A DNA stretch of 64,000 bases from a virus (Duplodnaviria > Caudoviricetes). Shown here piece after piece: positions 1,944 through 28,946 of the stretch. The first letter of the stretch is position 1. Every line of letters begins with the position of its first letter. Under the pieces are notes generated by a model. It ran no database searches. It was given only the letters and a program-made list of their open reading frames with translations, and had not been told where the DNA came from. The DNA is taken from positions 1 through 64,000 of IMG/VR virus record IMGVR_UViG_2767802041_000001. One strand, 5' to 3'. The position numbers and the translations under genes were made by a program.

Positions 1944-3548
1944 TCAGCGCCGGCCGGGCGGGTCTCCGCGCTCGTAGGTGTCCATCGTGGTCTCGAGCCC
2001 GTCGACTTCAGCAAGTTCAGTGAGGGCGTGAACGGCGGAGTCCATGCGGTCCGGGGAGTCCATCCCGGGCATCCAGGTGACCATCTGCCCTTCGAGCTTG
2101 GTGAACTGTCCGACGTGATGGACTCGGCCTTGCCCGTACAGCTGGGCGATGGGTTCGGCGCGCAGCCGTTTGCCCTGCTTGGCGTTCACGGGGATGAGCC
2201 GCGGCATGAGCATGCGCCCGGTCAGGCCCTTGCGGGCGAGTTCCTGCCAGGCCTGGGTGATGACTTGGGCGGTCATGTCGCCGCCGTAGTTCGACTCGAC
2301 GACGATCGCGTCGGCCTGCCAGTCGATGGCGAGTTGGCAGGCGACGATCCCCCATTCGTCGGCGCCGAGGGAGGCGGACTTGTCGTCGAGGACGTAGAAC
2401 TCGTCGCGCATCTCGGGGTGGGAGTGGTGCGGGCCGAGGGATTCGACGTAGGCGGACCCGGCGGCAGTGATGCCGACCTCGTCGTTCGAGGTGGACTTGC
2501 CGCCGGCAGGGTCGACAGCGATGACGATCCGGTCGAGGTCGATGCTGCGCAGGACTGCGGTGCTGATGCGGTGGTCGTCGATCCAGGACTGTTTCCACAC
2601 GCCGCCCGAGAGGGGGCGGGGCTGCTGTTGGTAGAGGGCCCACCAGACGCGCTCGCCGACCGCTCTGCGGGTCCGTTCCAGCTCCTCGGCGTCGTACTGC
2701 TCGGGCCACAAGGCGTCGCCGATGTTCCGGCCGAGCGGATCGTCGTTGGACAGTGCAGTGGCGGGCAGGTCGATGAGAGTCCAGTTCTCGGGCTCGGTGG
2801 CGAGGATGCGCCCGGACAGGTCGTCTTCATGCCAGCGCGTGTTGATCAAGACGATTGAGGCGCCGGGGGCGCGGCGGGTGTAGAAGACGGACTGGTACCA
2901 CTCCCACTTGCGGTCGCGCTGGGTGGGGCTGTTGGCGTCCTCGCTGCCTTTGAATGGGTCATCGATGACGCCGAGGTTGAAGCCCTTGCCGTTCAAAGAG
3001 CCTCCGACGCCGGCGGTGACCATGCCTCCTCGTACGGAGGACCCGCGGGGTTGTTCAAGGTCGAAGCGGTTGGCGGCACGGGAGCCGTCATCGAGGCGGA
3101 CTCCGAGCGTGGGGGCGTACTCCCGGAGTTGGTCACGTACCCACCGGCCGTGGTCGTCGGCGAGTTCGGCACCGTATGAGGCGAGCATGACGCGGTGGGT
3201 GGGGTGACGGCGCAGGTACCAGAGTGGCCCCCAGCGTGAGGCGCGCTGCGATTTTCCATGTCTCGGCGGGCAGGTGATCATCACTTGCATGCGCTCACCT
3301 GCGGCGATGCGCATGAATACGGCGTCGATCATGTCGAGGTGGCGGGCCTGCTTTTCCCGGCCCTCGGTGAGTACGGAGGCGAGGGCGCCCGGGGAGCGGT
3401 CCATGGCCATCTGCCGTTCCACCCATGCGAGGCGCAGCCGAACGTCGGGGCTGGCCGCTTGGGCGATGCGGCGACGCTCGGGTACGGGGAGTTCCCGGTA
3501 TTCGGCGAGCAGGGCGCCCTCGAGGAGCTCAGCCGTCGGCGTCGCCAC
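1944..3548 (-). CDS. terL: Terminase large subunit
   Basis: Walker A PPRHGKS, Walker B VIDDP, TRWHEDDL motif, nuclease acidic motifs IAVDPA and PDRMDS. Confidence 0.95.
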   Translation of the reverse strand: MATPTAELLEGALLAEYRELPVPERRRIAQAASPDVRLRLAWVERQMAMDRSPGALASVLTEGREKQARHLDMIDAVFMRIAAGERMQVMITCPPRHGKSQRASRWGPLWYLRRHPTHRVMLASYGAELADDHGRWVRDQLREYAPTLGVRLDDGSRAANRFDLEQPRGSSVRGGMVTAGVGGSLNGKGFNLGVIDDPFKGSEDANSPTQRDRKWEWYQSVFYTRRAPGASIVLINTRWHEDDLSGRILATEPENWTLIDLPATALSNDDPLGRNIGDALWPEQYDAEELERTRRAVGERVWWALYQQQPRPLSGGVWKQSWIDDHRISTAVLRSIDLDRIVIAVDPAGGKSTSNDEVGITAAGSAYVESLGPHHSHPEMRDEFYVLDDKSASLGADEWGIVACQLAIDWQADAIVVESNYGGDMTAQVITQAWQELARKGLTGRMLMPRLIPVNAKQGKRLRAEPIAQLYGQGRVHHVGQFTKLEGQMVTWMPGMDSPDRMDSAVHALTELAEVDGLETTMDTYERGDPPGRR

Positions 3549-4178: not shown

Positions 4179-4883
4179 ATGAGATCGATGCGTGGGGTGG
4201 GGGTCGCGGCGGTTGGTGTGGCCGTGGCTGTGGTGTTGTCGGGGTGCGGCGGAAGCGGGGACGGGGGCGAGGAGGCGGCCGGCTCGAGTCCGTCGTCGAC
4301 TCCCAGTTCAGTGGTGCCGACGGAGGAGCCCACGGAGGTGCCGGAGCCGGTCTACCCGCCCGGGCCGGAGGGGGAGATCGACGAGCTCGCGGACGAGAAG
4401 GGGTGGGCGGTCGGCTCGGGGTCGGCGTCCGGGTTCGTGCGGGACATTTGCGAGTCGCTGCCGGTGAGCGCGGTGGATGGGGCGTCGCGGCCGCAGTGGC
4501 TGGTCGAGTCGGGGCAGATGGACGGCGACAACGGCGAGGCTCTGTTGGTGGGGGTGCCGAAGCTGTGTCCGGAGTGGGCGAAGGCCGTCAAGGAGGCTGT
4601 GTCGGGGTCGTACGAGCGGTGGTTCGGGGACGGCGCGTATGTGGTGTCGTCGAAGATGCCGTCGGCCGAGCAGTTGTCGGAGGGCGAGGGGTTGCCGATC
4701 CCGCCGGGGACGTATCGGGCGTCGGGGCGGATGGAGGACTGCTACTGGGAGCGGACGTCGAAGGGCGGGGGCATCCTCGACAACGGGTTCGCGACGTCGG
4801 CCCAGAGCATCACGGTGACGATCAGGGCGTCGGATGGTCAGTTCACGGCGCGGGGCTGCGGGGTGTGGAAGCCGGTGAGGTAG
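4179..4883 (+). CDS. Putative lipoprotein
   Basis: Signal peptide with lipobox VLSGC, S/P-rich linker, C-terminal PGTYR...CYWER...GC domain seen in actinobacterial lipoproteins. Confidence 0.75.
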   Translation: MRSMRGVGVAAVGVAVAVVLSGCGGSGDGGEEAAGSSPSSTPSSVVPTEEPTEVPEPVYPPGPEGEIDELADEKGWAVGSGSASGFVRDICESLPVSAVDGASRPQWLVESGQMDGDNGEALLVGVPKLCPEWAKAVKEAVSGSYERWFGDGAYVVSSKMPSAEQLSEGEGLPIPPGTYRASGRMEDCYWERTSKGGGILDNGFATSAQSITVTIRASDGQFTARGCGVWKPVR

Positions 4884-4900
4884 CTGGCCCTGGACATGCG

Positions 4901-4942
4901 GCGGCCCCCTCCAGGCCGTCCTCAACCTCTGGAAGGGGCCGC
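4901..4942. terminator. Hairpin between convergent lipoprotein and traB genes
   Basis: GCGGCCCC(C)TCCAG...CTGGA(A)GGGGCCGC inverted repeat. Confidence 0.6.
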
Positions 4943-5138
4943 GCGCTCCCTGGCCTCACCAGCCCTCTGCTCAGTTCTGGTGGGGTCAGGCTGCCGCTGC
5001 CGGTACGCCCCCGGCAACGGGTCTGTGTGGCCGGCCGGTCTGGGAGTGGGCGCGGGGACACCGGGGCTCCCTGACCGGCCGTGCAGTACCAGCGTGACGC
5101 ACAATCGGGGGTTTGTCCGGGCTGCCCTTCCCTCGGTT

Positions 5139-7415
5139 CTACTCCCCCGTGCTGATCTCGTCCGGGTCCGCGTCGAGCCCGTACTCGCCGCGGACAACCT
5201 TGCCGCCCTCGGTGCGCCGGTGGATCTGCCCGGTCTTGGTGAGGCGGGTGAGGGCGTTGTCGAGGGTGGATCCGCTGGAGCCGGTCATGGTGGCGAGCTG
5301 GTCCTTGTGGAGGTAGACCGTCTCGAGGCCGATGGGGTCGGCGGCGTCCTTGAGGGCCTGGACGATCTTCTCTTCGGTGCTGGTGGGCTTCTTGGTCGGG
5401 GGCGGGGTGAAGAGAGTGCCGGGGGTGGAGGGCATGTCGGGGCCGCTGCTGTTGTCGTCGCCGGGGAGGACGGGCTGGGTGGCGAGGGTGTCCCGGTCGG
5501 CCCAGGCCGGCCAGTCGGCGGGGTGCGCGATGTGCTGGGTGTCGATGTGGGGGGTGGCGTCTTCGAGGATGTAGTTGCGCATCATTTCGGCGTGGGCGCC
5601 GGGTGAGGCGGCGAAGGCGAGGCCGAAGGTGCGCTTGGGGTCGTCGGGCGGGGTGTTGGGGTCGTAGACCATCTGCCGGTCGGCGGACCAGGCCGGGGGG
5701 ATGTCGGCGGGGTTGCAGCCGGCGAAGTTCTCGGGGAGGTCGACGAGGTGCTTCTGCTGGGAGTCGGAGCGCAGGAGGATGAGGCTGCCGCCGTAGAAGA
5801 CGTTGTCGCGGATGGCTGCGTCGCCGCCGAGCTGGGCGAGTTGCATGAGCTGGTTGGCGAGGATGACGGGCATGCCGAGGGATCGGCCGAGGGTGGCCCC
5901 GGCGTTGATGATGTAGGTGGCTTCCTTCTTGTGTTCGGCGTTCTCGCCGAGGAGCTTGGACGCTTCGTCGAGGATGAGCGGCACCCAGGGGCGTTCCGGG
6001 CTGGGCTGGAAGTTCTTCATGCCGAGGCGGGCGGATTCGGTGACCCGGTGCTGGAGGATGTGGAACCAGATGCGGAGGGCGCCCATGGCGCCGTCGGGGC
6101 CGAGTCCGGAGTAGGCGGCCATGGCGTCGATAGCGGGGTTGGAGGAGCCCTTGGGGTCGGCGTAGATGATCGCGGACCCGTTGACGTGGTGGGCGAGGGC
6201 GATGAGCTGGAGGGTTCCGCCCTTTCCGGAGCCGGTGACGCCGGCGACGATGCAGTGCTGGGCGCCGAGCGCGGGGTCGTGGAGTTGGATGCGGGCGGGG
6301 AACCCGGAGACGCCGACGCCGATCTGCACGTACCCGTTGGTGTTGGCCTTGAGGACGTGGGTGCCGGGGAAAGGGACGCCGGCTTCGAGGGGGTTGCGGT
6401 CCATGAGGCGGATGACGGCCTCTCTGGGGTTCTGGCGGGGTTCGTAGGAGACGAGGAGGGGGTTCTTGATGCGGAGGGCCCCGGCGAGGTCCATGCGGTC
6501 GGGGTGCTGGAGCCGGTCGAGGTTGTCTCCGGCGACGACGACGGCGACTTGGCCGCCGGTGTTGGGGTCGTCCTGGATGTTCTGGAGGTGGGTGCCGGCC
6601 ATGAGTCCGTTGGTCTTGGACAGCCACTTGCGCCAGGCCCCGGCAAGGGTCGAAGGGTCGAGGTCGGCGGGCGGGGTGAGGTTGACGGTGATCTGCCGTT
6701 CGCCTGCGTGGGTGCCGGGCTGGTGGGTGATCCAGGTGGCGGGGATTTGGTAGACGGAGGAGATCGCGTCGGGGGTGACGGTGACGGTGCCGCCGAGGGG
6801 GGCGGTGATGATGCCGGCCCACCGGGTGGGGGTGAGGGTGGTGAGGGTGAGTTCCTGGCCGCGGTGGGTTCCGGTGCGGGGGTGGGAGATGTGCTGGGCC
6901 CAGAGGCGGACAATGTCGTCGCCGGGGGTTCCGGTGGTGGGGATGCCTGGCAGGGCGGTGGTGGCGGGGCTGGTTGCGGGTGGGGTGCGGCGGAGGACGT
7001 TGCGGAGCTTGAGGGGGACGATGGCGACGGCGGCCCACCAGCCGAGGGAGACGATGCCGGGGATGGAGGGGAGGGTGGCGATGCCGGCCATGAGGGCGTC
7101 GGCGCCTTCGGGGCCCATGAGGGTGCCCATGGCGAGGGCGGTGCCGGTGGTGAGTGTGGAGATGAAGAGGGGGCTGCGGTGGGCTTCGGCGATGTCGGCG
7201 GCGGGAAGGTTCGCGCGGAGGGCGGGTGGGAGGCGGCCCATGTAGTTCGCGGCGAGGAACCCGGCTGCTCCCCCGTAGGCGAGGGTGGTGGTGAAGGCTG
7301 CGCTGCCGTCGAGGAGGGGGGCGAGGATGCCGGTCGCGATGGGGGCTGCGGTGGTGGCGATAGCGATGGCGCGTTCGGTGGTGGCGGGCCGGGCGTGAGC
7401 GGTGGGGATGGTCAT
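5139..7415 (-). CDS. traB: TraB-like FtsK/SpoIIIE-family conjugative DNA translocase
   Basis: N-terminal TM helices, Walker A GVTGSGKG, DPKG motif, Walker B LILDEA, C-terminal winged-helix-like segment; Streptomyces transfer-region context. Confidence 0.85.
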   Translation of the reverse strand: MTIPTAHARPATTERAIAIATTAAPIATGILAPLLDGSAAFTTTLAYGGAAGFLAANYMGRLPPALRANLPAADIAEAHRSPLFISTLTTGTALAMGTLMGPEGADALMAGIATLPSIPGIVSLGWWAAVAIVPLKLRNVLRRTPPATSPATTALPGIPTTGTPGDDIVRLWAQHISHPRTGTHRGQELTLTTLTPTRWAGIITAPLGGTVTVTPDAISSVYQIPATWITHQPGTHAGERQITVNLTPPADLDPSTLAGAWRKWLSKTNGLMAGTHLQNIQDDPNTGGQVAVVVAGDNLDRLQHPDRMDLAGALRIKNPLLVSYEPRQNPREAVIRLMDRNPLEAGVPFPGTHVLKANTNGYVQIGVGVSGFPARIQLHDPALGAQHCIVAGVTGSGKGGTLQLIALAHHVNGSAIIYADPKGSSNPAIDAMAAYSGLGPDGAMGALRIWFHILQHRVTESARLGMKNFQPSPERPWVPLILDEASKLLGENAEHKKEATYIINAGATLGRSLGMPVILANQLMQLAQLGGDAAIRDNVFYGGSLILLRSDSQQKHLVDLPENFAGCNPADIPPAWSADRQMVYDPNTPPDDPKRTFGLAFAASPGAHAEMMRNYILEDATPHIDTQHIAHPADWPAWADRDTLATQPVLPGDDNSSGPDMPSTPGTLFTPPPTKKPTSTEEKIVQALKDAADPIGLETVYLHKDQLATMTGSSGSTLDNALTRLTKTGQIHRRTEGGKVVRGEYGLDADPDEISTGE

Positions 7416-7473
7416 GGCGGTCTCCTGACGGTGTGGGCCGGGGTGCGGGGGCGAGCGGGGTTCGGTGGTGTGG

Positions 7474-7854
7474 TTACTGCTGGCGGAGCCATTCGCGGTT
7501 GAGCTCTTTCACGCCGACCGCGGACCGGGAGACCGCTTCGGCGATGCCGCCGTGGGATGCCTGGTTCTGGGCGTGCGCGGCTTGGGCGGACTTTGCGGTG
7601 GTGTCTGCGGCGGACGCGTAGGCGTGCGCGGAGTCGGCGAGGCCGTCCATGAGGCGGGCGAGGTGCTGGGTTTCGGCGACGGTGTCGGGGTCGACGCCCA
7701 TCGCGGCGATGCCTTCGGCGGTGCGGGCGGTGTCCTGGGCTTGGTCGGTGATGAACTTGCCGTGCTGCTGGATCACCTCGGATGCGCGGACGACTTGCTT
7801 GCCGAGGTCGGTGACGGCCTTCTGGAGTTCGCGGAACCGGATGTCGGTGGCCAT
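7474..7854 (-). CDS. Small helical transfer-region protein
   Basis: 126-aa Ala/Gln-rich amphipathic helical ORF with RBS, directly upstream of traB. Confidence 0.7.
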   Translation of the reverse strand: MATDIRFRELQKAVTDLGKQVVRASEVIQQHGKFITDQAQDTARTAEGIAAMGVDPDTVAETQHLARLMDGLADSAHAYASAADTTAKSAQAAHAQNQASHGGIAEAVSRSAVGVKELNREWLRQQ

Positions 7855-7856
7855 GG

Positions 7857-9773
7857 TCAGGCTCCCTGGTAGTAGGCGAGTTCGGCGGGGACGGTTTCGG
7901 GTGAGTCGACGACGGCCTGGTACATGCCGCCGTAGCGGGTGGAGACGTTCGCGAGGACGGCGGCGCAGGCGTCGGCGGACCGGACGGCCCGCTTGTGGAT
8001 CTCTCCGGCTTCGACGGCTTGCTTCTTGGCGTCCTCGGTGAGCCGTGACAGGGCGGAGGCCAGCTTGTCGCCGCCCTTGACGCCCCTGGCCTGCTCGAGA
8101 AGGTTCTGTGCCTGCTGGGCTTGGCCTTCGGCGTGGGCCTGGAGCTGCTTGGTGGTGTCGGCGGTCTTCTGGAGGGTGGTGAGGCGGTCTTCGAGGCGGC
8201 GTTCGAACTGCTTGAGGGAACGGACTTCGCCGCGGCTGATGGTGGTGCGGGAGGCCCCGTCGCCGAGGTGGAGGTTCTTCGCGTCGATTCCGGTGACCTG
8301 GATGGGGTTCGGTGCGCCGGGTTCTGTGTGGTGGTCGGCGCTGCTGGTGGTGGGGGTGGTCACGGTGGGCTCGCTCTCTCGGGTGTTGCGGCGTTCGGCG
8401 TGGGCCTGGTCGAGGAGGGTCTTCTCGTGGTGGGCGGCGGCGAGGGTGTCGTTCCAGCCGTCTTTGAGACCGTCGCGGTAGGCGCGGGCGTGGGCGGTGG
8501 CTTTCGCGGCGCGGGTGCCGTCGCGGTAGCCGGTCTCTCGGGAGGGCTGGGTGGCGAGGGGCCGCTTGGTGGGGCCAGCGGTGGGGGTGGTGCGGGTTTC
8601 GGGCTTGTCCTGGTTGCCGGTCGTCTCGGTGGCCGGGGTGGGCTTGGCCGGGTTGCCGTTGCCCTTGGTGGGGGCTTTCGGCTCCTGGCCCTTCTTCTTG
8701 GTGAGGTCCGGCTTCGTCTTCGAGTCGGGCTTCGGCGTCTTGTTGGTGTCGCCGGGCGTCTTGTCGTTGGTGGTCTGCTTCGGGATTCGGGGGCCGGCCG
8801 GGGTGTTCTTGCCGTTGGTGGTGTCTGTGGGGGTCTTGGGGGTGGGCGGGGTCTTGCCGTCCTTGCCGGGCTTACCGGTACCGCCAGTGCTGCCCTTCGC
8901 CCCGGTGGTGGTGCCGGGGTTGGTCTTGGTGTTGTTCTTCGGCGCGGCCGCGCTCGCGTCCTTGGTCTTGACCGGCTTCGGGGTGGCGGTTTCGGTGTTG
9001 GTGCGGCCGCGGTTGGTGTCCTTGCCGCCGCCTCCGTGGCTGCTGCCGGTGTTGCTGCGCCCGTCCGGGCCGGACAGTCCGCGGGGGTTGCGGTTCTTCG
9101 TGGTGCCGGCCGGGCCGTTGGTCGGCTTGGTGTGGGTGGTGTTGTTCTTCGGGCCGGCGGCTCCGCTGTTCTTGGTGTGGCCGCCGGAGGACTTCCGGTC
9201 GAGGGACTTGCCGCCCTGACCGCCCCCGGGGCCGGTGCTGCCGGACGGCTTCGGGCCGCGGCCGCCACCTCCCCCACCGGGCCCCTTGGCGCCGGCCCCG
9301 CCGCCGCTGCCGCCTGCGGGGGTGCGGTTCACGGTGACCTGGCGGGTCTCCTTGACCTGGTCGGCCTGGGCGCGGGCCTTGTGCATGTCGAGGCGCTTGT
9401 TCGCGGTGCCGCCGCCCTTCGCCCACCGGGTTGCGGCAGCGAGGACGAGGGCCCGGATCATGCCCTGCTTCGGCTTCCCGGCACCGTTCCCGGAGGGGTT
9501 GGTGGTCTTGGTGCTGTCGGGGGTGGTGGTGTCGTGGAAGGCGGCGCTGGAGACCCCGCCGGCGGGCGTGCCACTGCCGCCCTCGGGGGTGCCGGGGGCG
9601 GCAGTGTCGGGGGTGAGGGTGAAGGTGGTTCGGGCGGGTTCGACGGGGGCGACCATGGATGCGAGGAGGCCCGGCCGCGGGCCCGCCCCGGTGGCCGTGG
9701 GGGCGGTGTTCGGGGCGGGCGGGGTCGCAGTGCTGGGGGTGGTGGCGGCTGCCGGTGCGGCTTCTGCCGACAT
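7857..9773 (-). CDS. Transfer-region protein with long low-complexity G/T/K/P region and helical C-terminal domain
   Basis: Long ORF in the operon with traB; C-terminal ~130 aa helical; start uncertain (9773 or 9785). Confidence 0.7.
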   Translation of the reverse strand: MSAEAAPAAATTPSTATPPAPNTAPTATGAGPRPGLLASMVAPVEPARTTFTLTPDTAAPGTPEGGSGTPAGGVSSAAFHDTTTPDSTKTTNPSGNGAGKPKQGMIRALVLAAATRWAKGGGTANKRLDMHKARAQADQVKETRQVTVNRTPAGGSGGGAGAKGPGGGGGGRGPKPSGSTGPGGGQGGKSLDRKSSGGHTKNSGAAGPKNNTTHTKPTNGPAGTTKNRNPRGLSGPDGRSNTGSSHGGGGKDTNRGRTNTETATPKPVKTKDASAAAPKNNTKTNPGTTTGAKGSTGGTGKPGKDGKTPPTPKTPTDTTNGKNTPAGPRIPKQTTNDKTPGDTNKTPKPDSKTKPDLTKKKGQEPKAPTKGNGNPAKPTPATETTGNQDKPETRTTPTAGPTKRPLATQPSRETGYRDGTRAAKATAHARAYRDGLKDGWNDTLAAAHHEKTLLDQAHAERRNTRESEPTVTTPTTSSADHHTEPGAPNPIQVTGIDAKNLHLGDGASRTTISRGEVRSLKQFERRLEDRLTTLQKTADTTKQLQAHAEGQAQQAQNLLEQARGVKGGDKLASALSRLTEDAKKQAVEAGEIHKRAVRSADACAAVLANVSTRYGGMYQAVVDSPETVPAELAYYQGA

Positions 9774-21329: not shown

Positions 21330-22040
21330 TCAGGGGGCCTTCTCCACCGTCGCCGTGTCGATCCACCGGGCAAGGATGCTGAACGCGGCCAACTGCTCCA
21401 GCGCCTCGTTCTCCTCCAACTCGTCACCGGCCTCGTGCGCGATCGGGTTCCGAATGCCCGCGTACACACCGCGGGCGAACGCCGCCGCACCGTCGTGCCG
21501 GCTACGCCACGTGTCGCTGTCCTCCTTCGGCGCCAGACGCAGCCGCGGCTTCCCCGGCTCAGGATCCTTCGTGCTGAACGCGTCCCCGAGGAGCTTCGAC
21601 TCCGACAGATCCTTCCTGCCGACCTTCGCCTGCGCCTGGGCGTTCACCGCGACCGCAGCCATCCCTACGGCCTGCCGGTAGTGGCCGCTCCCCCATAGGC
21701 CCTGCACGCTCCCCCACACCCACGGATGCAGAGTCGACGCGTCCAACTGCGGTGCGCCAGAGCCGAGGTTCTCGGCCAGCTCCTGCTCGGCCCGCAACTG
21801 AGCGATTGCTCTAGTCGAAGCTTCCAGCTCCCGCCAGTAGCGATACGAGTTCTTCGGCCAGGCCGCCGTTCGCCAGGTCGGCACCACTCTGTCGAGGATG
21901 TGTTCAACTACTTGCGCCTCCCCCTGGACATTCGCAATGGGGTAATTTCTTCTCCACGCAGACCCGGTCCAGGTGACGGACGCAGTGCGTATGAAGCTCT
22001 CAAGCTTCTCGATGGCCCATTCGTGGTTGATCTGAGTCAT
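21330..22040 (-). CDS. TIGR02391-like protein
   Basis: LHPWVW...GHYRQAV...L..DAFS...GIRNPIAHE...EALEQLA.FS.L pattern. Confidence 0.7.
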   Translation of the reverse strand: MTQINHEWAIEKLESFIRTASVTWTGSAWRRNYPIANVQGEAQVVEHILDRVVPTWRTAAWPKNSYRYWRELEASTRAIAQLRAEQELAENLGSGAPQLDASTLHPWVWGSVQGLWGSGHYRQAVGMAAVAVNAQAQAKVGRKDLSESKLLGDAFSTKDPEPGKPRLRLAPKEDSDTWRSRHDGAAAFARGVYAGIRNPIAHEAGDELEENEALEQLAAFSILARWIDTATVEKAP

Positions 22041-23467: not shown

Positions 23468-23788
23468 ATGGCCGAGCCGATCGTCACCACCACCCGCCAC
23501 GAAGTCAGCATCTTCCCCCTCGATGACATCAACCGCCGCGCCTTCACCCTCTACGTCGAACGCCTCCGCTACCGCCGCCCCGGCGAAGGCGAGTGGCGTG
23601 TCATCGACGGCGTCTACGGCTACAACGAGCGCGCGCTCCCGGACACCGACGTGCGTGACGCCCCCGGCTTCGACGAGACCACCGCCCTCGGCATCGCGAA
23701 GGAGGCCGCCCGCCACATCGTCGTCAACGGCATGTCCGCCACCGAGGTGTACGACCGCACCCGCCCCGCCCCCGAGGGGGCCCGGTGA
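23468..23788 (+). CDS. Hypothetical protein
   Basis: GGAAGGA RBS. Confidence 0.65.
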   Translation: MAEPIVTTTRHEVSIFPLDDINRRAFTLYVERLRYRRPGEGEWRVIDGVYGYNERALPDTDVRDAPGFDETTALGIAKEAARHIVVNGMSATEVYDRTRPAPEGAR

Positions 23789-23937
23789 CCGGCCAGCCCG
23801 TCTGCCAGTGGTGCGGGCAGCCTCCCGTCGGCACACCCCGGTGGTGGGACGGGCGGCCACAGTGCGAAGACGTGTTCGCCTGCCAGCAGCGGGCCGTTGA
23901 CCAGAGCGGGCACAGCGAAGGCGCGGCCGGCGTGTAG
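23785..23937 (+). CDS. Small Cys-rich hypothetical protein
   Basis: GTGA overlap; CQWCG...C....C. Confidence 0.45.
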   Translation: MTGQPVCQWCGQPPVGTPRWWDGRPQCEDVFACQQRAVDQSGHSEGAAGV

Positions 23938-24313
23938 CTCACCGGCCGCGCCTTCGACCCTGCCCCGCCCTGCCCCTGAAAGAGGGTCAGAGAAATGGCG
24001 GGAAGCCCTCTGGGCCACTTGGCGCGCTGCGATACGCCCAAGCGTTCCAATAGCTCCCCGCCACGTTCCGGACAGGTTGCGGGAATTCCCTGCTGCAAGA
24101 CCGAAACCGAACACGCTTCACGGTTTGGTCGGGATTCCCACACATGCCCCACCCGCCCAGGACGCTGCGAAGATCCGCAGGCCAGCGAGGCACCAGCCCA
24201 GCATCGTAGGTAAACAGCGAGTTTTCTAGGGGAACTTTTCAGTATTAAAACCAGTGCCTACAACTAGGCTCACGGCGTGCCACATGTCTCATACACCGGG
24301 GGAAAAGCAGAGC

Positions 24314-25150
24314 ATGAGCAAGGTAAGTAAGGGTGCCCTTCGTGAACTCCTGATGGAGCGTCGGGCGCTGATTGACCCCAAGGGACACGGCTTCATCCGC
24401 CCGACCAAACAGGGACGGCGAGCCCCCGGGCTGACACAACACCAGATCGACACGCTGACCAACCGCTCGGACGGCACGTACCAGCGCCTGGAGTCCGGAA
24501 CCTGGGCCAACCCTCCCGGCGACTACCTCCGCGACGTCGCAACCCTCCTCGGCCTCAACGAGCAGGAATGGACCAGCCTGTGCCGGTACGCGGGCATCGG
24601 CGACCCCCCAGGCCCCCTCACCCCCGAGTCCGGCAAACAAGTCCCCGGAGTGTGGCAGGAAGCCGTCGACGGCATGCTCCACCCCGCCTACGTCACCGAC
24701 GCCTCCTGGGAGCTCATAGCCCACAACCGGGAGTTCGCCCGCCTCTTCCCCGGCGGGCAGGTGCCCCGCAACACCATGCGATGGATGGTGTTGGAGAAGG
24801 GCGGCCGGCGCATGCTCACCGACTGGCACACCGCCTGGGCCCCCCTCGTCCTCCCCCAACTCCGAGCCGCCCTCTCCACCCGCCCCGACGACCCGATCCT
24901 CCGCCAACTCGAGCAGGATGTTCTCGCCGACCCGGACTGTGCCCCCATCTGGTCCGGGGCGGTCGCCCACATCCACCCCGATGGCGACGAGCGCCCTCTC
25001 CTCCACGCCGAGGACGGCCCCGGCTGGGTGACGATGTGCGCGGCGCAGCCGATGACCGCCCCCGGGGCCCGTCTGATCGTGCTGGTGTTCCATGCCGGGG
25101 AGTCCCGGGCGCACGCCCGCACCCCCGTCCTCCGCGCCGACTCGACCTGA
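24314..25150 (+). CDS. MmyB-family regulator (XRE HTH plus PAS-like ligand-binding domain)
   Basis: L.ERRA...GRRAPGLTQ....L...S...Y.RLE.G HTH; PAYVTDASWELIAHN...N.MRW...DW signature. Confidence 0.85.
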   Translation: MSKVSKGALRELLMERRALIDPKGHGFIRPTKQGRRAPGLTQHQIDTLTNRSDGTYQRLESGTWANPPGDYLRDVATLLGLNEQEWTSLCRYAGIGDPPGPLTPESGKQVPGVWQEAVDGMLHPAYVTDASWELIAHNREFARLFPGGQVPRNTMRWMVLEKGGRRMLTDWHTAWAPLVLPQLRAALSTRPDDPILRQLEQDVLADPDCAPIWSGAVAHIHPDGDERPLLHAEDGPGWVTMCAAQPMTAPGARLIVLVFHAGESRAHARTPVLRADST

Positions 25151-25411
25151 CGCACCAGCACGCCCCCGACCGAGGCCACCTGCGCGCACCACCCCCATCG
25201 CGCAGGTGGCCTCCCCCATGCGCCGCCCCGCACCCGAGAGCACCCCCGCGCCCGCGGCCGCCACCCCACCGGGCGCACAGGCACCACCGGCCACAGCAAC
25301 CACAAACAGACCGCCCGCCCCGTTCCCCACCCCGCTGATCAGGGGCAATACCGGCTGGCACGTGCCATATGTTGTGCAGACCACCGCCGCCCAGGCCTGC
25401 CGGAGGATGTC

Positions 25412-26461
25412 GTGCCCGCCTACATAGCCCAACCCGTCACCGTGTTCCCTCAGCATCAGATCACCACGGCCGAGATCGCCGACGACATCCGCCACCACCA
25501 CCCCGACCACCCCAAGCTCGGTGCGATCCTCCGCATGCTCACGAACACCGGGGTCGCCACCCGGTACTTCACCCGCCCCCTGGCCGCCCCCACCGTCGCC
25601 GGCACCGCTGGGGTCGGCACCCGGGCGGCCGCAGCCTTCGGCGACGCCCTCGACCTCGCCACGGAAGCAGCCCGCCGCACCCTCACCCTTCACCGCCTGG
25701 CCCCGGTCGACGTCGACGCCATCATCACCACCCACTCCACCGGGTGGGCCGTCCCCAACCTCGACATCCACCTCATCAACTGGCTCGGGCTGCGCCCCGA
25801 CGTACGGCGCATCGCACTGACCACCCTCGCCTGCGCCGGCGGCACCCACGCCCTGATTCGCGCCGTCGACATGGTCACCGCCCGCCCTGGCGCCACCGTC
25901 CTCGTCGTCGCCGCAGAGGTCATCTCCGCCGTGTACAACCACGCCGACGACGCCGTGGAGCACATGATCTACAAGGCGTTGTTCGGCGACAGCGCCGCCG
26001 CCACGATCGTCACCAGCAGCCACCGCGGCCCCGGACTGCACGTCGCCACCCCCGACGACACGTACGAGCACGTCCTCCCCGCCAGCCTCACCCGTTACAA
26101 CGGAAGGGTCGACGCGACCGGGTTCCACTTCGACAGCACGAAGGACGCCCTCACCGCCGCGGACGACGTCCTCCCCGACCTGTTGAAGTGGCTCGGCCCC
26201 GAGCTCGTCGACTTCGGGGTCATTCACCCCGGATCGCAGCGCATCATCAACGACACCGCCCGCGCCCTCGGCCTCGACGCCCACGACACCCGGCACAGCA
26301 CCGACACCCTTGCCGAGGAGGGCAACCTCGGCGGGCCGTCCGTGCTGCGCATCCTGGAACGCACCCATGGCAAACCCCCGACTGCCGGGTCGCGCGGGGT
26401 GATGGTCGCCTACGGGCCCGGGTTCAACACCGCGGCAATCCGGGGAACCTGGCACGCCTGA
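25412..26461 (+). CDS. Type III polyketide synthase
   Basis: Catalytic triad motifs LACAGG (Cys), IHPGS (His), GNLGG (Asn); LFGDSAAA; YGPGF. Confidence 0.92.
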   Translation: MPAYIAQPVTVFPQHQITTAEIADDIRHHHPDHPKLGAILRMLTNTGVATRYFTRPLAAPTVAGTAGVGTRAAAAFGDALDLATEAARRTLTLHRLAPVDVDAIITTHSTGWAVPNLDIHLINWLGLRPDVRRIALTTLACAGGTHALIRAVDMVTARPGATVLVVAAEVISAVYNHADDAVEHMIYKALFGDSAAATIVTSSHRGPGLHVATPDDTYEHVLPASLTRYNGRVDATGFHFDSTKDALTAADDVLPDLLKWLGPELVDFGVIHPGSQRIINDTARALGLDAHDTRHSTDTLAEEGNLGGPSVLRILERTHGKPPTAGSRGVMVAYGPGFNTAAIRGTWHA

Positions 26462-26538
26462 CCCGCCACTGCGCCCCCGCGTCGGACCGCACCCGACCGG
26501 GGGCAACGAAACGCCTCACCGGGTCCAGCATTGGAGGT

Positions 26539-26988
26539 ATGAGCCCTTCCCCTCGCTCCAGCGAGTCCAACCTGGTCGCCCACGCCCGCCGCGAACTCCG
26601 CATCCTCGGCGAAGACCCCGACACCATCCGCGGCCTCTGCAAGGTCGTCCAAGCGTTCGCCAACATGGGCCACAGCGGCGGCAGCGCACCCCACGCCATC
26701 GCCTACCTGGAGCGCCTCCTGCGGTTCCAGCCCCTTACCGACCTCACCGACGACCCCGCCGAGTGGATCGACCGGTACGCCGAAGGCATGACCTCGACCC
26801 CTCTCTGGCAGTCCAACCGCAACAGCGAGGCGTTCTCCACCGACGGCGGGAAGACTTACTACCTCCTGTCCGAGCAGCAGGCCGCCGGGGACATCGCCAC
26901 CACCCCGCTCCACCGCTCTACCGAGCTTCCGCGAGCAGAGATGACCATCACCACCTGGCCTGATGAGGCCGCGGTGAAGGAATCATGA
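26539..26988 (+). CDS. Hypothetical phage protein
   Basis: GGAGG close to the ATG; GHSGGSA...L.FQPLTDLT motif. Confidence 0.65.
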   Translation: MSPSPRSSESNLVAHARRELRILGEDPDTIRGLCKVVQAFANMGHSGGSAPHAIAYLERLLRFQPLTDLTDDPAEWIDRYAEGMTSTPLWQSNRNSEAFSTDGGKTYYLLSEQQAAGDIATTPLHRSTELPRAEMTITTWPDEAAVKES

Positions 26989-27674
26989 GCGTCGCCCCGG
27001 AACCTGACCAGTCGGGCCTGAACGACTGGTACAAGGCAGGCTGCTCCCGTGCCTGCGCCAACCAGCACACCCTCCAGTGGGGGCGCTGCGCCCACGCCGA
27101 AGTGCCCACCGACGAATCCTTCATCGTCGCCAAAACCGCCCTCGCGACCCCAGAGTCCTGGCCCTACATCTGCGGCACCCCGCGCCACACCAAGCTTCTG
27201 GACTGGCTGCGCACACACGATATCGAACCCAGCTGCGTCTCCTCCGACGATCCGCTCAGCCTCGCCACCGGATCTGACGGCACCCGGCTGATCGAGTACA
27301 CGCAGTACCTCGTCACTGCGGAAGGTCACCGGTACCTGGACCCGAAGGACCGCACGGTCGCTGCCAAGGAAACTCGTCGCGCACCTGTGAAGACCGACCC
27401 CCCGCGGCCGAAGCGCGCCGACATCACCACCCTCGCGCTCCTCCAAGCAATCCACGACCACGCCACACGCCCCGTCCCGCTCGGGAAGTACCGGTGGGAG
27501 ATCCCGGGCGCCTGGTGGACGCTGTGCACGGTTTACCCGGAGAAGGTGGTCACCGCGGCGTACGTCCGGGAGGACGACCGCGGGCACCTGGAGTGCGGTG
27601 TCAGCCTCCGTACGAGCTGGCTCACCGACGAAGGGCGGGCCCGCCTTGTCGAACTGCGAGGCGCCCCGATCTGA
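26985..27674 (+). CDS. Hypothetical protein
   Basis: ATGA overlap, AAGGA RBS. Confidence 0.65.
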   Translation: MSVAPEPDQSGLNDWYKAGCSRACANQHTLQWGRCAHAEVPTDESFIVAKTALATPESWPYICGTPRHTKLLDWLRTHDIEPSCVSSDDPLSLATGSDGTRLIEYTQYLVTAEGHRYLDPKDRTVAAKETRRAPVKTDPPRPKRADITTLALLQAIHDHATRPVPLGKYRWEIPGAWWTLCTVYPEKVVTAAYVREDDRGHLECGVSLRTSWLTDEGRARLVELRGAPI

Positions 27675-27689: not shown

Positions 27690-28460
27690 CTACGGTGCGA
27701 CACGTCCGTTGGTGTTGAACGCGGCGTGCGTGAGCGGCATCAGCCCCGCCCAGTGCGCCTCCATCAGCTCCCCCACCATCTCAATCTCCCGCTGAGGGAA
27801 CGACGGGACCTTGGCATCGGGGTGGGTGGTGCGGAGCCCCAGGAAGTGCATCAGCGACCTGGCGTTGCACGTCGCGTACATCGACGAGTACAGGCCGACC
27901 GGGAGGACCGACCGGGCGACCTCCCGGGCCACACCCGCGGCCAGCATGGCCTCGTAGGCGGCGTACGCCTCCCGGTACGCGACCTCCATGTGCAGCCGCG
28001 TGAAGTCGTGCAGTCCAGCCGGGCCGTCCACGAACTCGTACCGCCCGGACTTTCCCTGCTGCACCAGCTTTCGGTCCTCGCCGGGCCAGTAGAACACCGG
28101 CTCCAGCTCCCGGTACCTCCCCGACTCCTCGTTGTACGACCAGCCGGCCCGGTGCCGCATGAACTCGCGGAACACGAAGATCGGGGCGCTGATGAAGAAC
28201 GTCATCGACGTGTGTTCCCAAGGTGATCCATGCCTGTCCCGCATGAGGTAGTTGATCAGCCCCCGGTCCCGGGCCGTCTGCGGGTGCTCCACCGCGGTGT
28301 GCTCCAGGTCGACCATGGCGCGGGCCGGGAAGCTCCGCTCACCCAAGGTGGACACCCGGGCCGCGAACAGCACGTCCGCGTCGGACGCGGACGCCTTCAC
28401 CAGCTCCACGGTGACGTCGTCACGGAACTTCGGCTGGGCGGGCATGGGGGTGTCGGTCAC
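27690..28460 (-). CDS. thyX: FAD-dependent thymidylate synthase
   Basis: AARVS, HGSPWEH, RHR...SYNEESGRY motifs; GTG start after GGAG. Confidence 0.93.
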   Translation of the reverse strand: MTDTPMPAQPKFRDDVTVELVKASASDADVLFAARVSTLGERSFPARAMVDLEHTAVEHPQTARDRGLINYLMRDRHGSPWEHTSMTFFISAPIFVFREFMRHRAGWSYNEESGRYRELEPVFYWPGEDRKLVQQGKSGRYEFVDGPAGLHDFTRLHMEVAYREAYAAYEAMLAAGVAREVARSVLPVGLYSSMYATCNARSLMHFLGLRTTHPDAKVPSFPQREIEMVGELMEAHWAGLMPLTHAAFNTNGRVAP

Positions 28461-28677
28461 CAGGACTCCAGGAAAGGGAAGGGTACCGCTCGGTGACACC
28501 AATTTTACGGCGATTCGAGTCGGTATATCTCCCTGGTTCAGGCCCAGTTGCCCGACTCTGCACCGCGTTGTCAGTGCCCCGTGGCACGCTGACCTTCCGG
28601 TGGTGGTCCGCCTCGAAGCCGATGCCACCACCGGCCCACCCGCACCAAGGCGAGGACCCTTCCCATGGCACTGAACT

Positions 28678-28946
28678 GACACGAGGAGGTGGTCGAGGTT
28701 GGCCCGGGACCCGGGCATCCGCAGGTCGTGCCGTATCGCCCACCCCTGCGCCACCAGCGGCGCCACCATGCGGGCCGTCTCGGCTTCCCCGGCGGCACCG
28801 TGCTCCCACCGGGCCGCCACAGCGTCCGCGCGCCGCACACGGCCCGTACGCACCCCCAGGGCGGCGAGGAGACGCTGCCACACCCCACGACGGGCGTTCG
28901 CGCGCAGGACGGCGGCCTGGACGGCCGCACTGTTCCGAGTGGTCAC
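28678..28946 (-). pseudogene. Truncated NERD nuclease-domain gene, in frame with thyX
   Basis: W..GAAGE..T...GW..RHDL....ANLDHLLV then abrupt loss of family pattern. Confidence 0.6.

Follow-up and report, generated by a model that had tools for sequence, protein, structure and literature searches.

Type III polyketide synthase (PKS) genes are already known from elements of the pZL12 type. In the GenBank entry of the Streptomyces phage ZL12 (GQ919031), pZL12.99 is annotated as "transcriptional regulator" and pZL12.100 as "type III polyketide synthase"; the type III PKS of pSLE1 is 59% identical to pZL12-100 (excerpt of PMC4487206), and the prophages in which type III PKS genes were found had all been detected on plasmids (excerpt of PMC10023795). 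Within these excerpts, the enzyme of pZL12 and pSLE1 is treated as an isolated gene and a regulator is not discussed. Regulators of the MmyB/MltR family are linked to secondary metabolism: according to the excerpt of PMC3406030, MmyB is the activator of a biosynthetic cluster, the ligand bound in MltR is a fatty acid, and about half of the MmyB paralogues of S. coelicolor adjoin a secondary-metabolite gene. A further system for comparison is arbitrium (AimP/AimR/AimX), the signal of which is a peptide. We analyzed positions 1 to 64,000 of the virus record IMGVR_UViG_2767802041_000001 (the window, a stretch of 64,000 nucleotides), which contains a gene for an MmyB-like regulator (REG) and, as the next gene on the same strand, one for a type III PKS (in the following, PKS designates this enzyme or its gene). 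A first reading of the sequence, here called the original prediction, had proposed that both form a minimal synthase-receptor pair, which serves communication or a lifestyle decision analogous to arbitrium.

The segment from about position 24168 to 26461 is probably a self-contained, ligand-gated biosynthetic moron, which a phage-plasmid of the pZL12 type carries as accessory cargo. The closest described counterparts are pZL12.99 and pZL12.100, which are orthologues of REG (92%) and PKS (89%) as determined by tblastn, and which are found in the same order and in the same region of the element. With the MmyB/MltR family, as presented in the excerpt of PMC3406030, REG shares an N-terminal XRE-type helix-turn-helix (HTH), a PAS-like MLTR domain and an adjoining gene of secondary metabolism. 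The likeness to arbitrium consists in a temperate element having a potential signal-making gene beside one for a transcription factor that binds a ligand; here, however, the signal would be a polyketide. Phage morons are resembled in that the locus is a discrete unit with promoter-like and terminator-like elements at a variable cargo site and is present in 26 of 34 relatives. It differs from other morons and prophage-borne biosynthetic genes in its cargo, namely a type III PKS and a presumably dedicated ligand-sensing regulator. The statement that nothing of this kind had been described for a phage has to be narrowed: the type III PKS of such elements is annotated in ZL12 and mentioned in PMC4487206 and PMC10023795 (excerpts), whereas the pairing is apparently unreported. 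Nothing on a type III PKS paired with an MmyB-type regulator was found in the literature searched, the scope of which did not include the original description of pZL12; the pairing, the cassette boundaries and the exchange with chromosomes have apparently not been published.

Evidence for this interpretation comes from the conservation of the pair. We compared 45 loci containing PKS (37 from genomes, eight from viral contigs), from which one outlier with an identity of 30% (L040) was set aside. In 41 of the 44 remaining loci, the gene immediately preceding PKS is REG, in the same orientation; the other three (L035, L037, L041) stop at a contig edge just before PKS. A search of PLSDB, for which the best 60 of 143 PKS matches and 60 of 66 REG matches were considered, gave at least 34 records having the REG-PKS arrangement within 1.2 kb. 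Among the matches listed, 35 records contain a PKS with an identity of at least 47%, and REG is adjacent in 33 of these. The exceptions are NZ_CP108116.1, where among these matches a REG-like gene lies 3.7 kb from PKS on the other strand, and NZ_CP109056.1, for which the matches listed contain no REG. In CP042280.1 REG and PKS are both in pieces, and in NZ_CP046906.1 REG is shortened.

Plasmids of the pZL12 type were recognized by their terminase (window positions 1944-3548, minus strand; at least 55% identity; n = 34). Both genes are present in 26 of these plasmids and both are missing in eight; the latter were each searched as a whole for the two proteins, and in the last three of these searches a positive control was included and detected. 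The pair also occurs on five more plasmids of 88-102 kb, which do not possess a homologue of the pZL12-type terminase and two of which have an HK97-type capsid gene. A Kitasatospora phage-plasmid has a more distant version of the pair (about 41% identity) in another location, adjoining its terminase. Hence the co-occurrence for which the original prediction had asked was found, both as adjacency and as joint presence or absence. As judged from these sequences, REG and PKS are a minimal conserved synthase-regulator unit that looks functional.

Single homologues were observed as well. On the non-phage plasmid NZ_CP108296.1 (L050) of S. melanogenes, which has no PKS, a homologue of REG with an identity of 62% was found (positions 5953-8637); after it come a small open reading frame (ORF) and genes for a DUF3995 protein, a sigma factor of RNA polymerase and an SRPBCC protein. 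This REG homologue branches outside all pair-linked REGs except for a divergent outgroup copy (L051). On linear S. anulatus plasmids (NZ_CP109342.1, positions 6800-8441; L049), a type III PKS, which is about 40% identical to the one of the window, overlaps tail-to-tail with a gene for an autoregulator receptor of the ScbR family.

Phylogenetic trees of both proteins were computed by means of quick IQ-TREE searches with support values of the Shimodaira-Hasegawa-like approximate likelihood ratio test (SH-aLRT) only; two duplicates of the window (L002, L003) and the outlier L040 were left out. The same clades were recovered in the PKS tree and in the REG tree. In addition, the pairwise identities of PKS and REG are correlated (r = 0.864, 946 pairs), and none of 999 Mantel permutations gave a value as high. 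The two genes have thus co-diverged, which is the second relationship that the original prediction had suggested to look for.

Compared with a chromosomal copy, the window shows nucleotide homology from about position 24168, i.e. 146 nucleotides (nt) before the ATG of REG, to the stop codon of PKS at 26461 and no further; this defines a cassette of 2.3 kb. According to gene maps and Pfam annotation, the cassette is found in at least five non-phage chromosomal contexts, and no phage genes were detected within 10 kb of it in the five contexts. In clade A (eight loci, PKS identity 74-77% to the window), the neighbours are genes for a nonribosomal peptide synthetase, cold-shock, NUDIX and GNAT proteins and an esterase. 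Clade B (21 loci, PKS identity 56-67%) is accompanied by genes for DUF4032 kinase-like, TetR, SDR, acyltransferase_3 and glutamate-synthase-like proteins. The other contexts are represented by one locus each: L018 with cytochrome P450 and APH genes, L019 with genes for NB-ARC/TPR and EF-hand proteins and a halogenase, and L039 with MFS and metallo-beta-lactamase genes and a second MmyB-like gene. Of 401 sampled Streptomyces genomes, 30 have an orthologue of PKS (E ≤ 1e-90). In the PKS tree as well as in the REG tree, clade A is nested among the phage-plasmid loci, and L018 and L019 group with the phage-plasmids L046 and L047 (support 100 and 99). These placements indicate repeated movement of the cassette between phage-plasmids and chromosomes, the direction of which is not established by the trees. 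Because the two-gene unit also resides in ordinary chromosomes, it looks like portable cargo and not like a phage communication system.

The original prediction had described PKS as an intact type III enzyme with Cys-His-Asn motifs and REG as an XRE-HTH regulator with a PAS-like domain, and both descriptions were confirmed. PKS is contained in the ORF list and has a coding-type G+C content at third codon positions (GC3) of 0.92. Both Pfam domains were detected, namely Chal_sti_synt_N (PF00195; E = 3.8e-20, 72.7 bits at a cut-off of 27) and Chal_sti_synt_C (PF02797; E = 9.9e-7, 29.3 bits at a cut-off of 27). Only ketosynthase-type domains cover the 349 residues, which corresponds to a stand-alone ketosynthase without acyl carrier protein or acyltransferase domains. 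In the alignment with 1u0m, Cys141, His272 and Asn305 occupy the positions of the catalytic triad, and they are invariant in all 48 aligned homologues. The gene is under purifying selection, with a ratio of nonsynonymous to synonymous substitution rates (dN/dS) of 0.22-0.35 as estimated by a crude Nei-Gojobori calculation.

Among solved structures, 1u0m (E = 4e-45) and 3v7i (E = 1.1e-40) are the closest; their database names are just "putative polyketide synthase". We take them to be tetrahydroxynaphthalene (THN) synthase (RppA) and germicidin synthase (Gcs) of S. coelicolor. They correspond to PKS in fold family, length class and Cys-His-Asn triad and are merely distant relatives; judging from this degree of similarity, the product of PKS is not readable from them. 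No PKS equivalog of NCBIfam was reached, the best one being DpgA with 99.1 bits at a cut-off of 425, and therefore the RefSeq designation "PhlD" of some relatives is a name and not an assignment. We rejected an annotation of PKS as THN, germicidin or DPA synthase, as there was no match at equivalog level. Besides the cassette copy, host chromosomes contain type III PKS paralogues with 30-35% identity; one host of a phage-plasmid copy possesses five further ones (30-33% identity).

REG is likewise part of the ORF list (GC3 = 0.86, coding-type), and its start codon is common to all homologues. At the C-terminus, MLTR_LBD (PF17765), which is a PAS-like domain, was found at residues 115-268 (E = 7.7e-18, 65.6 bits at a cut-off of 26.3) and the N-terminal HTH_31 domain reached 28.4 bits at a cut-off of 27. 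For a profile deduced from 19 REG homologues, the best match in the PDB was 3pxp; this match is weak (E = 0.0082) and aligns to the HTH of 3pxp. Selection is purifying also in this case (dN/dS 0.09-0.30, calculated in the same crude manner). Neither REG nor PKS contains a TTA codon, and neither matched a PHROG or PADLOC family.

With respect to the carrier, the window is part of a virus record of 85,081 bases having a completeness rating of 94%. An 85-kb plasmid of S. californicus is 100% identical to the window over the part compared, and its annotation lists terminase, major capsid, HK97 gp10 and tail genes. Streptomyces phage ZL12 matched 43% of a 10-kb query from the window with an identity of 87%. 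Due to these matches and the phage genes, the element can be classified as a pZL12-like Streptomyces phage-plasmid of 85 kb. The original prediction, which had placed the pair on a phage-plasmid and among phage genes, agrees with the plasmid annotation and the match to ZL12. It had also stated that tailoring and transport genes are missing: a Pfam scan of the neighbours detected no such gene adjoining the pair. The pair is flanked by small hypothetical genes, by a Tad3-like gene and by a hypothetical gene of 229 residues (Pfam); a DnaB-like helicase and ThyX are also among the neighbours (Pfam, PHROGs).

The features of the cassette and its surroundings are compiled in Table 1. The hairpin in front of the cassette has a folding energy of -51 kcal/mol (z = -5.52) and the one between the genes of -37.3 kcal/mol (z = -5.45); in both cases, none of 200 shuffled sequences folded as well. 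The former may shield the cassette from upstream transcription. The latter is terminator-like and would divide REG and PKS into two putative transcription units. It is located in the spacer of 261 nt that separates the genes and that also contains a promoter-like block; consequently, PKS is the next gene downstream of REG on the same strand, as had been noted originally, and is not contiguous with it. The region upstream of REG, which forms the left edge of the common cassette, is kept in all contexts. In the upstream regions of related PKS genes, an alignment inspected by eye shows a TA(G/C/T)(G/C)TT element 40-55 nt before the start codon. By the same kind of inspection, TGATCAGGG is retained in the phage-plasmid clade and in the chromosomal clade A. 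A comparison of positions 23700-27100 with Rfam gave nothing near threshold.

Table 1. Positions of the features of the REG-PKS cassette and of adjacent elements in the window
Feature	Position	Strand	Basis
Hairpin upstream of the REG promoter region, terminator-like without T-run	23915-23956	+	RNA fold
Conserved REG upstream region, promoter-like, AT-rich (GTTTTCT...TAGGCT...GGGGGA)	24168-24313	+	homology, by eye
REG, regulator with XRE-type HTH and MmyB-like (MltR) ligand-binding domain, 278 residues	24314-25150	+	Pfam
Hairpin with perfect 15-bp stem, terminator-like, 21 nt past the REG stop	25172-25213	+	sequence, fold
PKS promoter/operator-like block	25335-25373	+	read by eye
Palindrome CTGATCAG	25335-25342	+	within PKS promoter/operator-like block
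Palindrome GGCACGTGCC	25357-25366	+	within PKS promoter/operator-like block
-10-like TATGTT, about 40 nt before the PKS start	25368-25373	+	within PKS promoter/operator-like block
PKS, type III polyketide synthase, 349 residues, GTG start, Cys141/His272/Asn305	25412-26461	+	Pfam, PDB relatives
Tad3-like gene, 149 residues, 77 nt downstream of PKS	26539-26988	+	Pfam PF25185

In clade B, a conserved pair CCCCCCAC ... GTGGGAG is located 20-60 nt ahead of the start of PKS, for instance at about 9940-9990 in L020. Inspection by eye suggests that this pair could fold and mask the ribosome-binding site.

The Tad3-like protein matches PF25185 ("Tad3, Type I Thoeris inhibitor") with E = 2.4e-33 and 114.8 bits at a cut-off of 27; Tad3 binds ThsB according to the excerpt of the review PMC13728456. 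The gene follows PKS just in the nearest phage-plasmid relatives, L041 (98%), L048 (91%) and L043 (84%), and it was found after PKS in none of the chromosomal cassettes. CP108822.1 (L063), one of the pair-less plasmids of the pZL12 type, contains at the corresponding spot (positions 4368-6385) a regulator with a LuxR C-terminal-type domain and then a Tad3-like gene. The spot is therefore variable with respect to its cargo, and this arrangement suggests that two convergent gene blocks flank a hot spot for cargo.

A connection of the cassette to the phage life cycle was not found by motif scans of the window and of the 85-kb record. A 15-base motif of the PKS promoter has one exact copy in the window and two matches with three mismatches. 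These three occurrences compare with 1.23 expected ones, and three were reached by 14 of 100 shuffled sequences, i.e. the number is within chance. If at most two mismatches are allowed, the motif occurs a single time in the whole 85-kb record; for this reason, no REG target was found near lifecycle genes. As the motif is just a putative REG operator, its scarcity constitutes weak negative evidence.

For the cassette as a moron, we propose the following mechanism. In the order own promoter, REG, hairpin, second promoter and stand-alone PKS, the cassette would occupy the variable spot between the two convergent gene blocks; the layout is moron-like because of the hairpins before the cassette and between the genes and the conserved promoter-like block in front of each gene. 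A REG dimer would bind to the PKS promoter, the -10-like element of which has the conserved palindrome CTGATCAG just upstream. A small, lipid-like ligand, which may be the acyl starter or the product of PKS, would occupy the PAS-like pocket and switch REG, and the switched regulator would gate the transcription of PKS. The enzyme would then condense malonyl-CoA onto an acyl starter and release a small product of the pyrone, resorcinol or phloroglucinol type. This product would act on the physiology or ecology of the carrier cell, i.e. by lysogenic conversion, and not on the lysis-lysogeny decision of the element. Control of PKS by REG, the ligand, the product and the benefit are those parts of the proposal that we infer.

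Several observations weigh against this interpretation. Adjacent genes co-diverge by linkage alone, so that the congruent trees are not a proof of functional coupling; the weight lies on the fact that the pair stays together while its context changes. The presumed target of REG is located downstream and is co-directional, whereas the presumed target is transcribed divergently for 15 of 16 MmyB paralogues of S. coelicolor (excerpt of PMC3406030). Moreover, TGATCAGGG is, by eye, not retained in the chromosomal clade B, and the operator is therefore not defined. A consensus scan of positions 23700-27100 gave no sigma-70-type promoter, which makes the promoter and operator calls an interpretation by eye; the scan also gave two terminator-like sites on the minus strand, which were not used. 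No motif was found that is consistently common to the promoters of REG and PKS. Finally, there is no significant hairpin after PKS (z = -1.68). Transcription of the Tad3-like gene may thus start from the PKS promoter as well, and PKS would then be connected to phage-host conflict.

The latter arrangement leads to an explanation in which the product is a weapon or shield against superinfecting phages or competing bacteria, or acts together with the neighbouring anti-defence gene during infection. The distance of 77 nt to a gene with a match to a Thoeris inhibitor family (E = 2.4e-33), the missing significant hairpin between the two, the variable cargo spot and a nearby Hypoth_Ymh protein with a weak HEPN-type PADLOC match are in line with it, as are the phage-inhibiting Streptomyces metabolites that are cited in PMC10023795. 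On the other hand, the same paper, as far as its excerpt goes in both respects, found no clusters for known antiphage molecules in prophages; REG and PKS have no PADLOC match; and the Tad3-like gene follows PKS just in L041, L043 and L048 and in no chromosomal cassette. A role in conflict, which is suggested solely by this neighbour, is unlikely. The product could also be a diffusible autoinducer and REG its receptor, by which the density of kin would set plasmid maintenance, lytic induction or transfer as in arbitrium or gamma-butyrolactone systems. A minimal pair of synthase and ligand-domain regulator without adjoining tailoring or export genes is what one would expect in such a circuit. 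Its cohesion during transfers between phage-plasmids and chromosomes, its presence in 26 of the 34 pZL12-type plasmids and in the five elements of 88-102 kb without pZL12-type terminase (two with an HK97 capsid gene), and the distant PKS (40% identity) beside an ScbR-family receptor on other plasmids would fit as well. A system of the arbitrium kind, however, would be a property of the phage rather than of its host's genome, whereas this cassette is common in chromosomes (30 of 401 genomes) and stands alone in at least five non-phage contexts; eight of 34 related elements do without it. Furthermore, the 85-kb element contains a single copy of the conserved motif of the PKS promoter; the motif scan of window and element revealed neither an AimX-like target nor an additional operator, no REG target was found near lifecycle genes, and no PHROG or PADLOC family exists for either protein. 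Of the original proposal, the minimal conserved unit (41 of 44 loci) is therefore supported and the phage-specific decision role is not supported; for an arbitrium-like circuit, we found no positive support and some evidence against it, and regard it as quite unlikely. A general role as Streptomyces autoinducer that is not specific for phages is possible. The most far-reaching version, a complete polyketide autoinducer circuit representing a new class of Streptomyces signalling, which was captured by pZL12-type phage-plasmids, passed back to chromosomes and couples the plasmid/lytic lifestyle or anti-defence genes to population cues, is very unlikely.

One can also assume that the linkage has no regulatory meaning, i.e. 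that REG controls other genes of host or element and merely travels beside a separately controlled PKS. The separate promoter-like blocks with a hairpin between them, the missing common motif of both promoters and the REG-like gene (62% identity) without PKS on the S. melanogenes plasmid are compatible with this assumption. Against it speak an order and orientation that are invariant in all 41 loci with upstream DNA, and a joint gain and loss across very different contexts; besides, the PKS-less REG branches outside all pair-linked REGs but the outgroup L051. We consider such an accidental linkage highly improbable. Biosynthetic genes are, to our knowledge, rare in phages; here, a PKS and its putatively dedicated ligand-sensing regulator are kept in most members of a Streptomyces phage-plasmid family and are exchanged with chromosomes. 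With two genes on 2.3 kb, the cassette is a small and clean target for studying which molecule is made, what MmyB-type regulators sense and what a temperate element gains. Should the product prove to be a signal or an antiphage compound, it would represent phage-borne chemistry of a new type; as an ordinary metabolite of benefit to the host, it would make the cassette a neat case of lysogenic conversion in a genus that produces antibiotics.

Some genes in the surroundings deserve mention. The ThyX thymidylate synthase (27690-28946, minus strand) has an N-terminal extension of about 170 residues, which gave a weak NERD match (E = 0.0032) and a match to phrog_38277 (E = 1.6e-19); in relatives, the NERD part and thyX are separate genes. 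On the opposite strand, in the early block, positions 21330-22040 (minus strand) encode a Hypoth_Ymh/TIGR02391 protein (Pfam, E = 2.4e-27). Its weak PADLOC matches are Aga_HEPN (a HEPN-type model, E = 9.8e-7) and PD-Lambda-3_B, which makes it a possible candidate for a defence gene. In several plasmids of the pZL12 type (H161, H162, H164, H173 and H176), the gene of the large terminase subunit is in two pieces, and genes for HNH or LAGLIDADG homing endonucleases are annotated inside the split.

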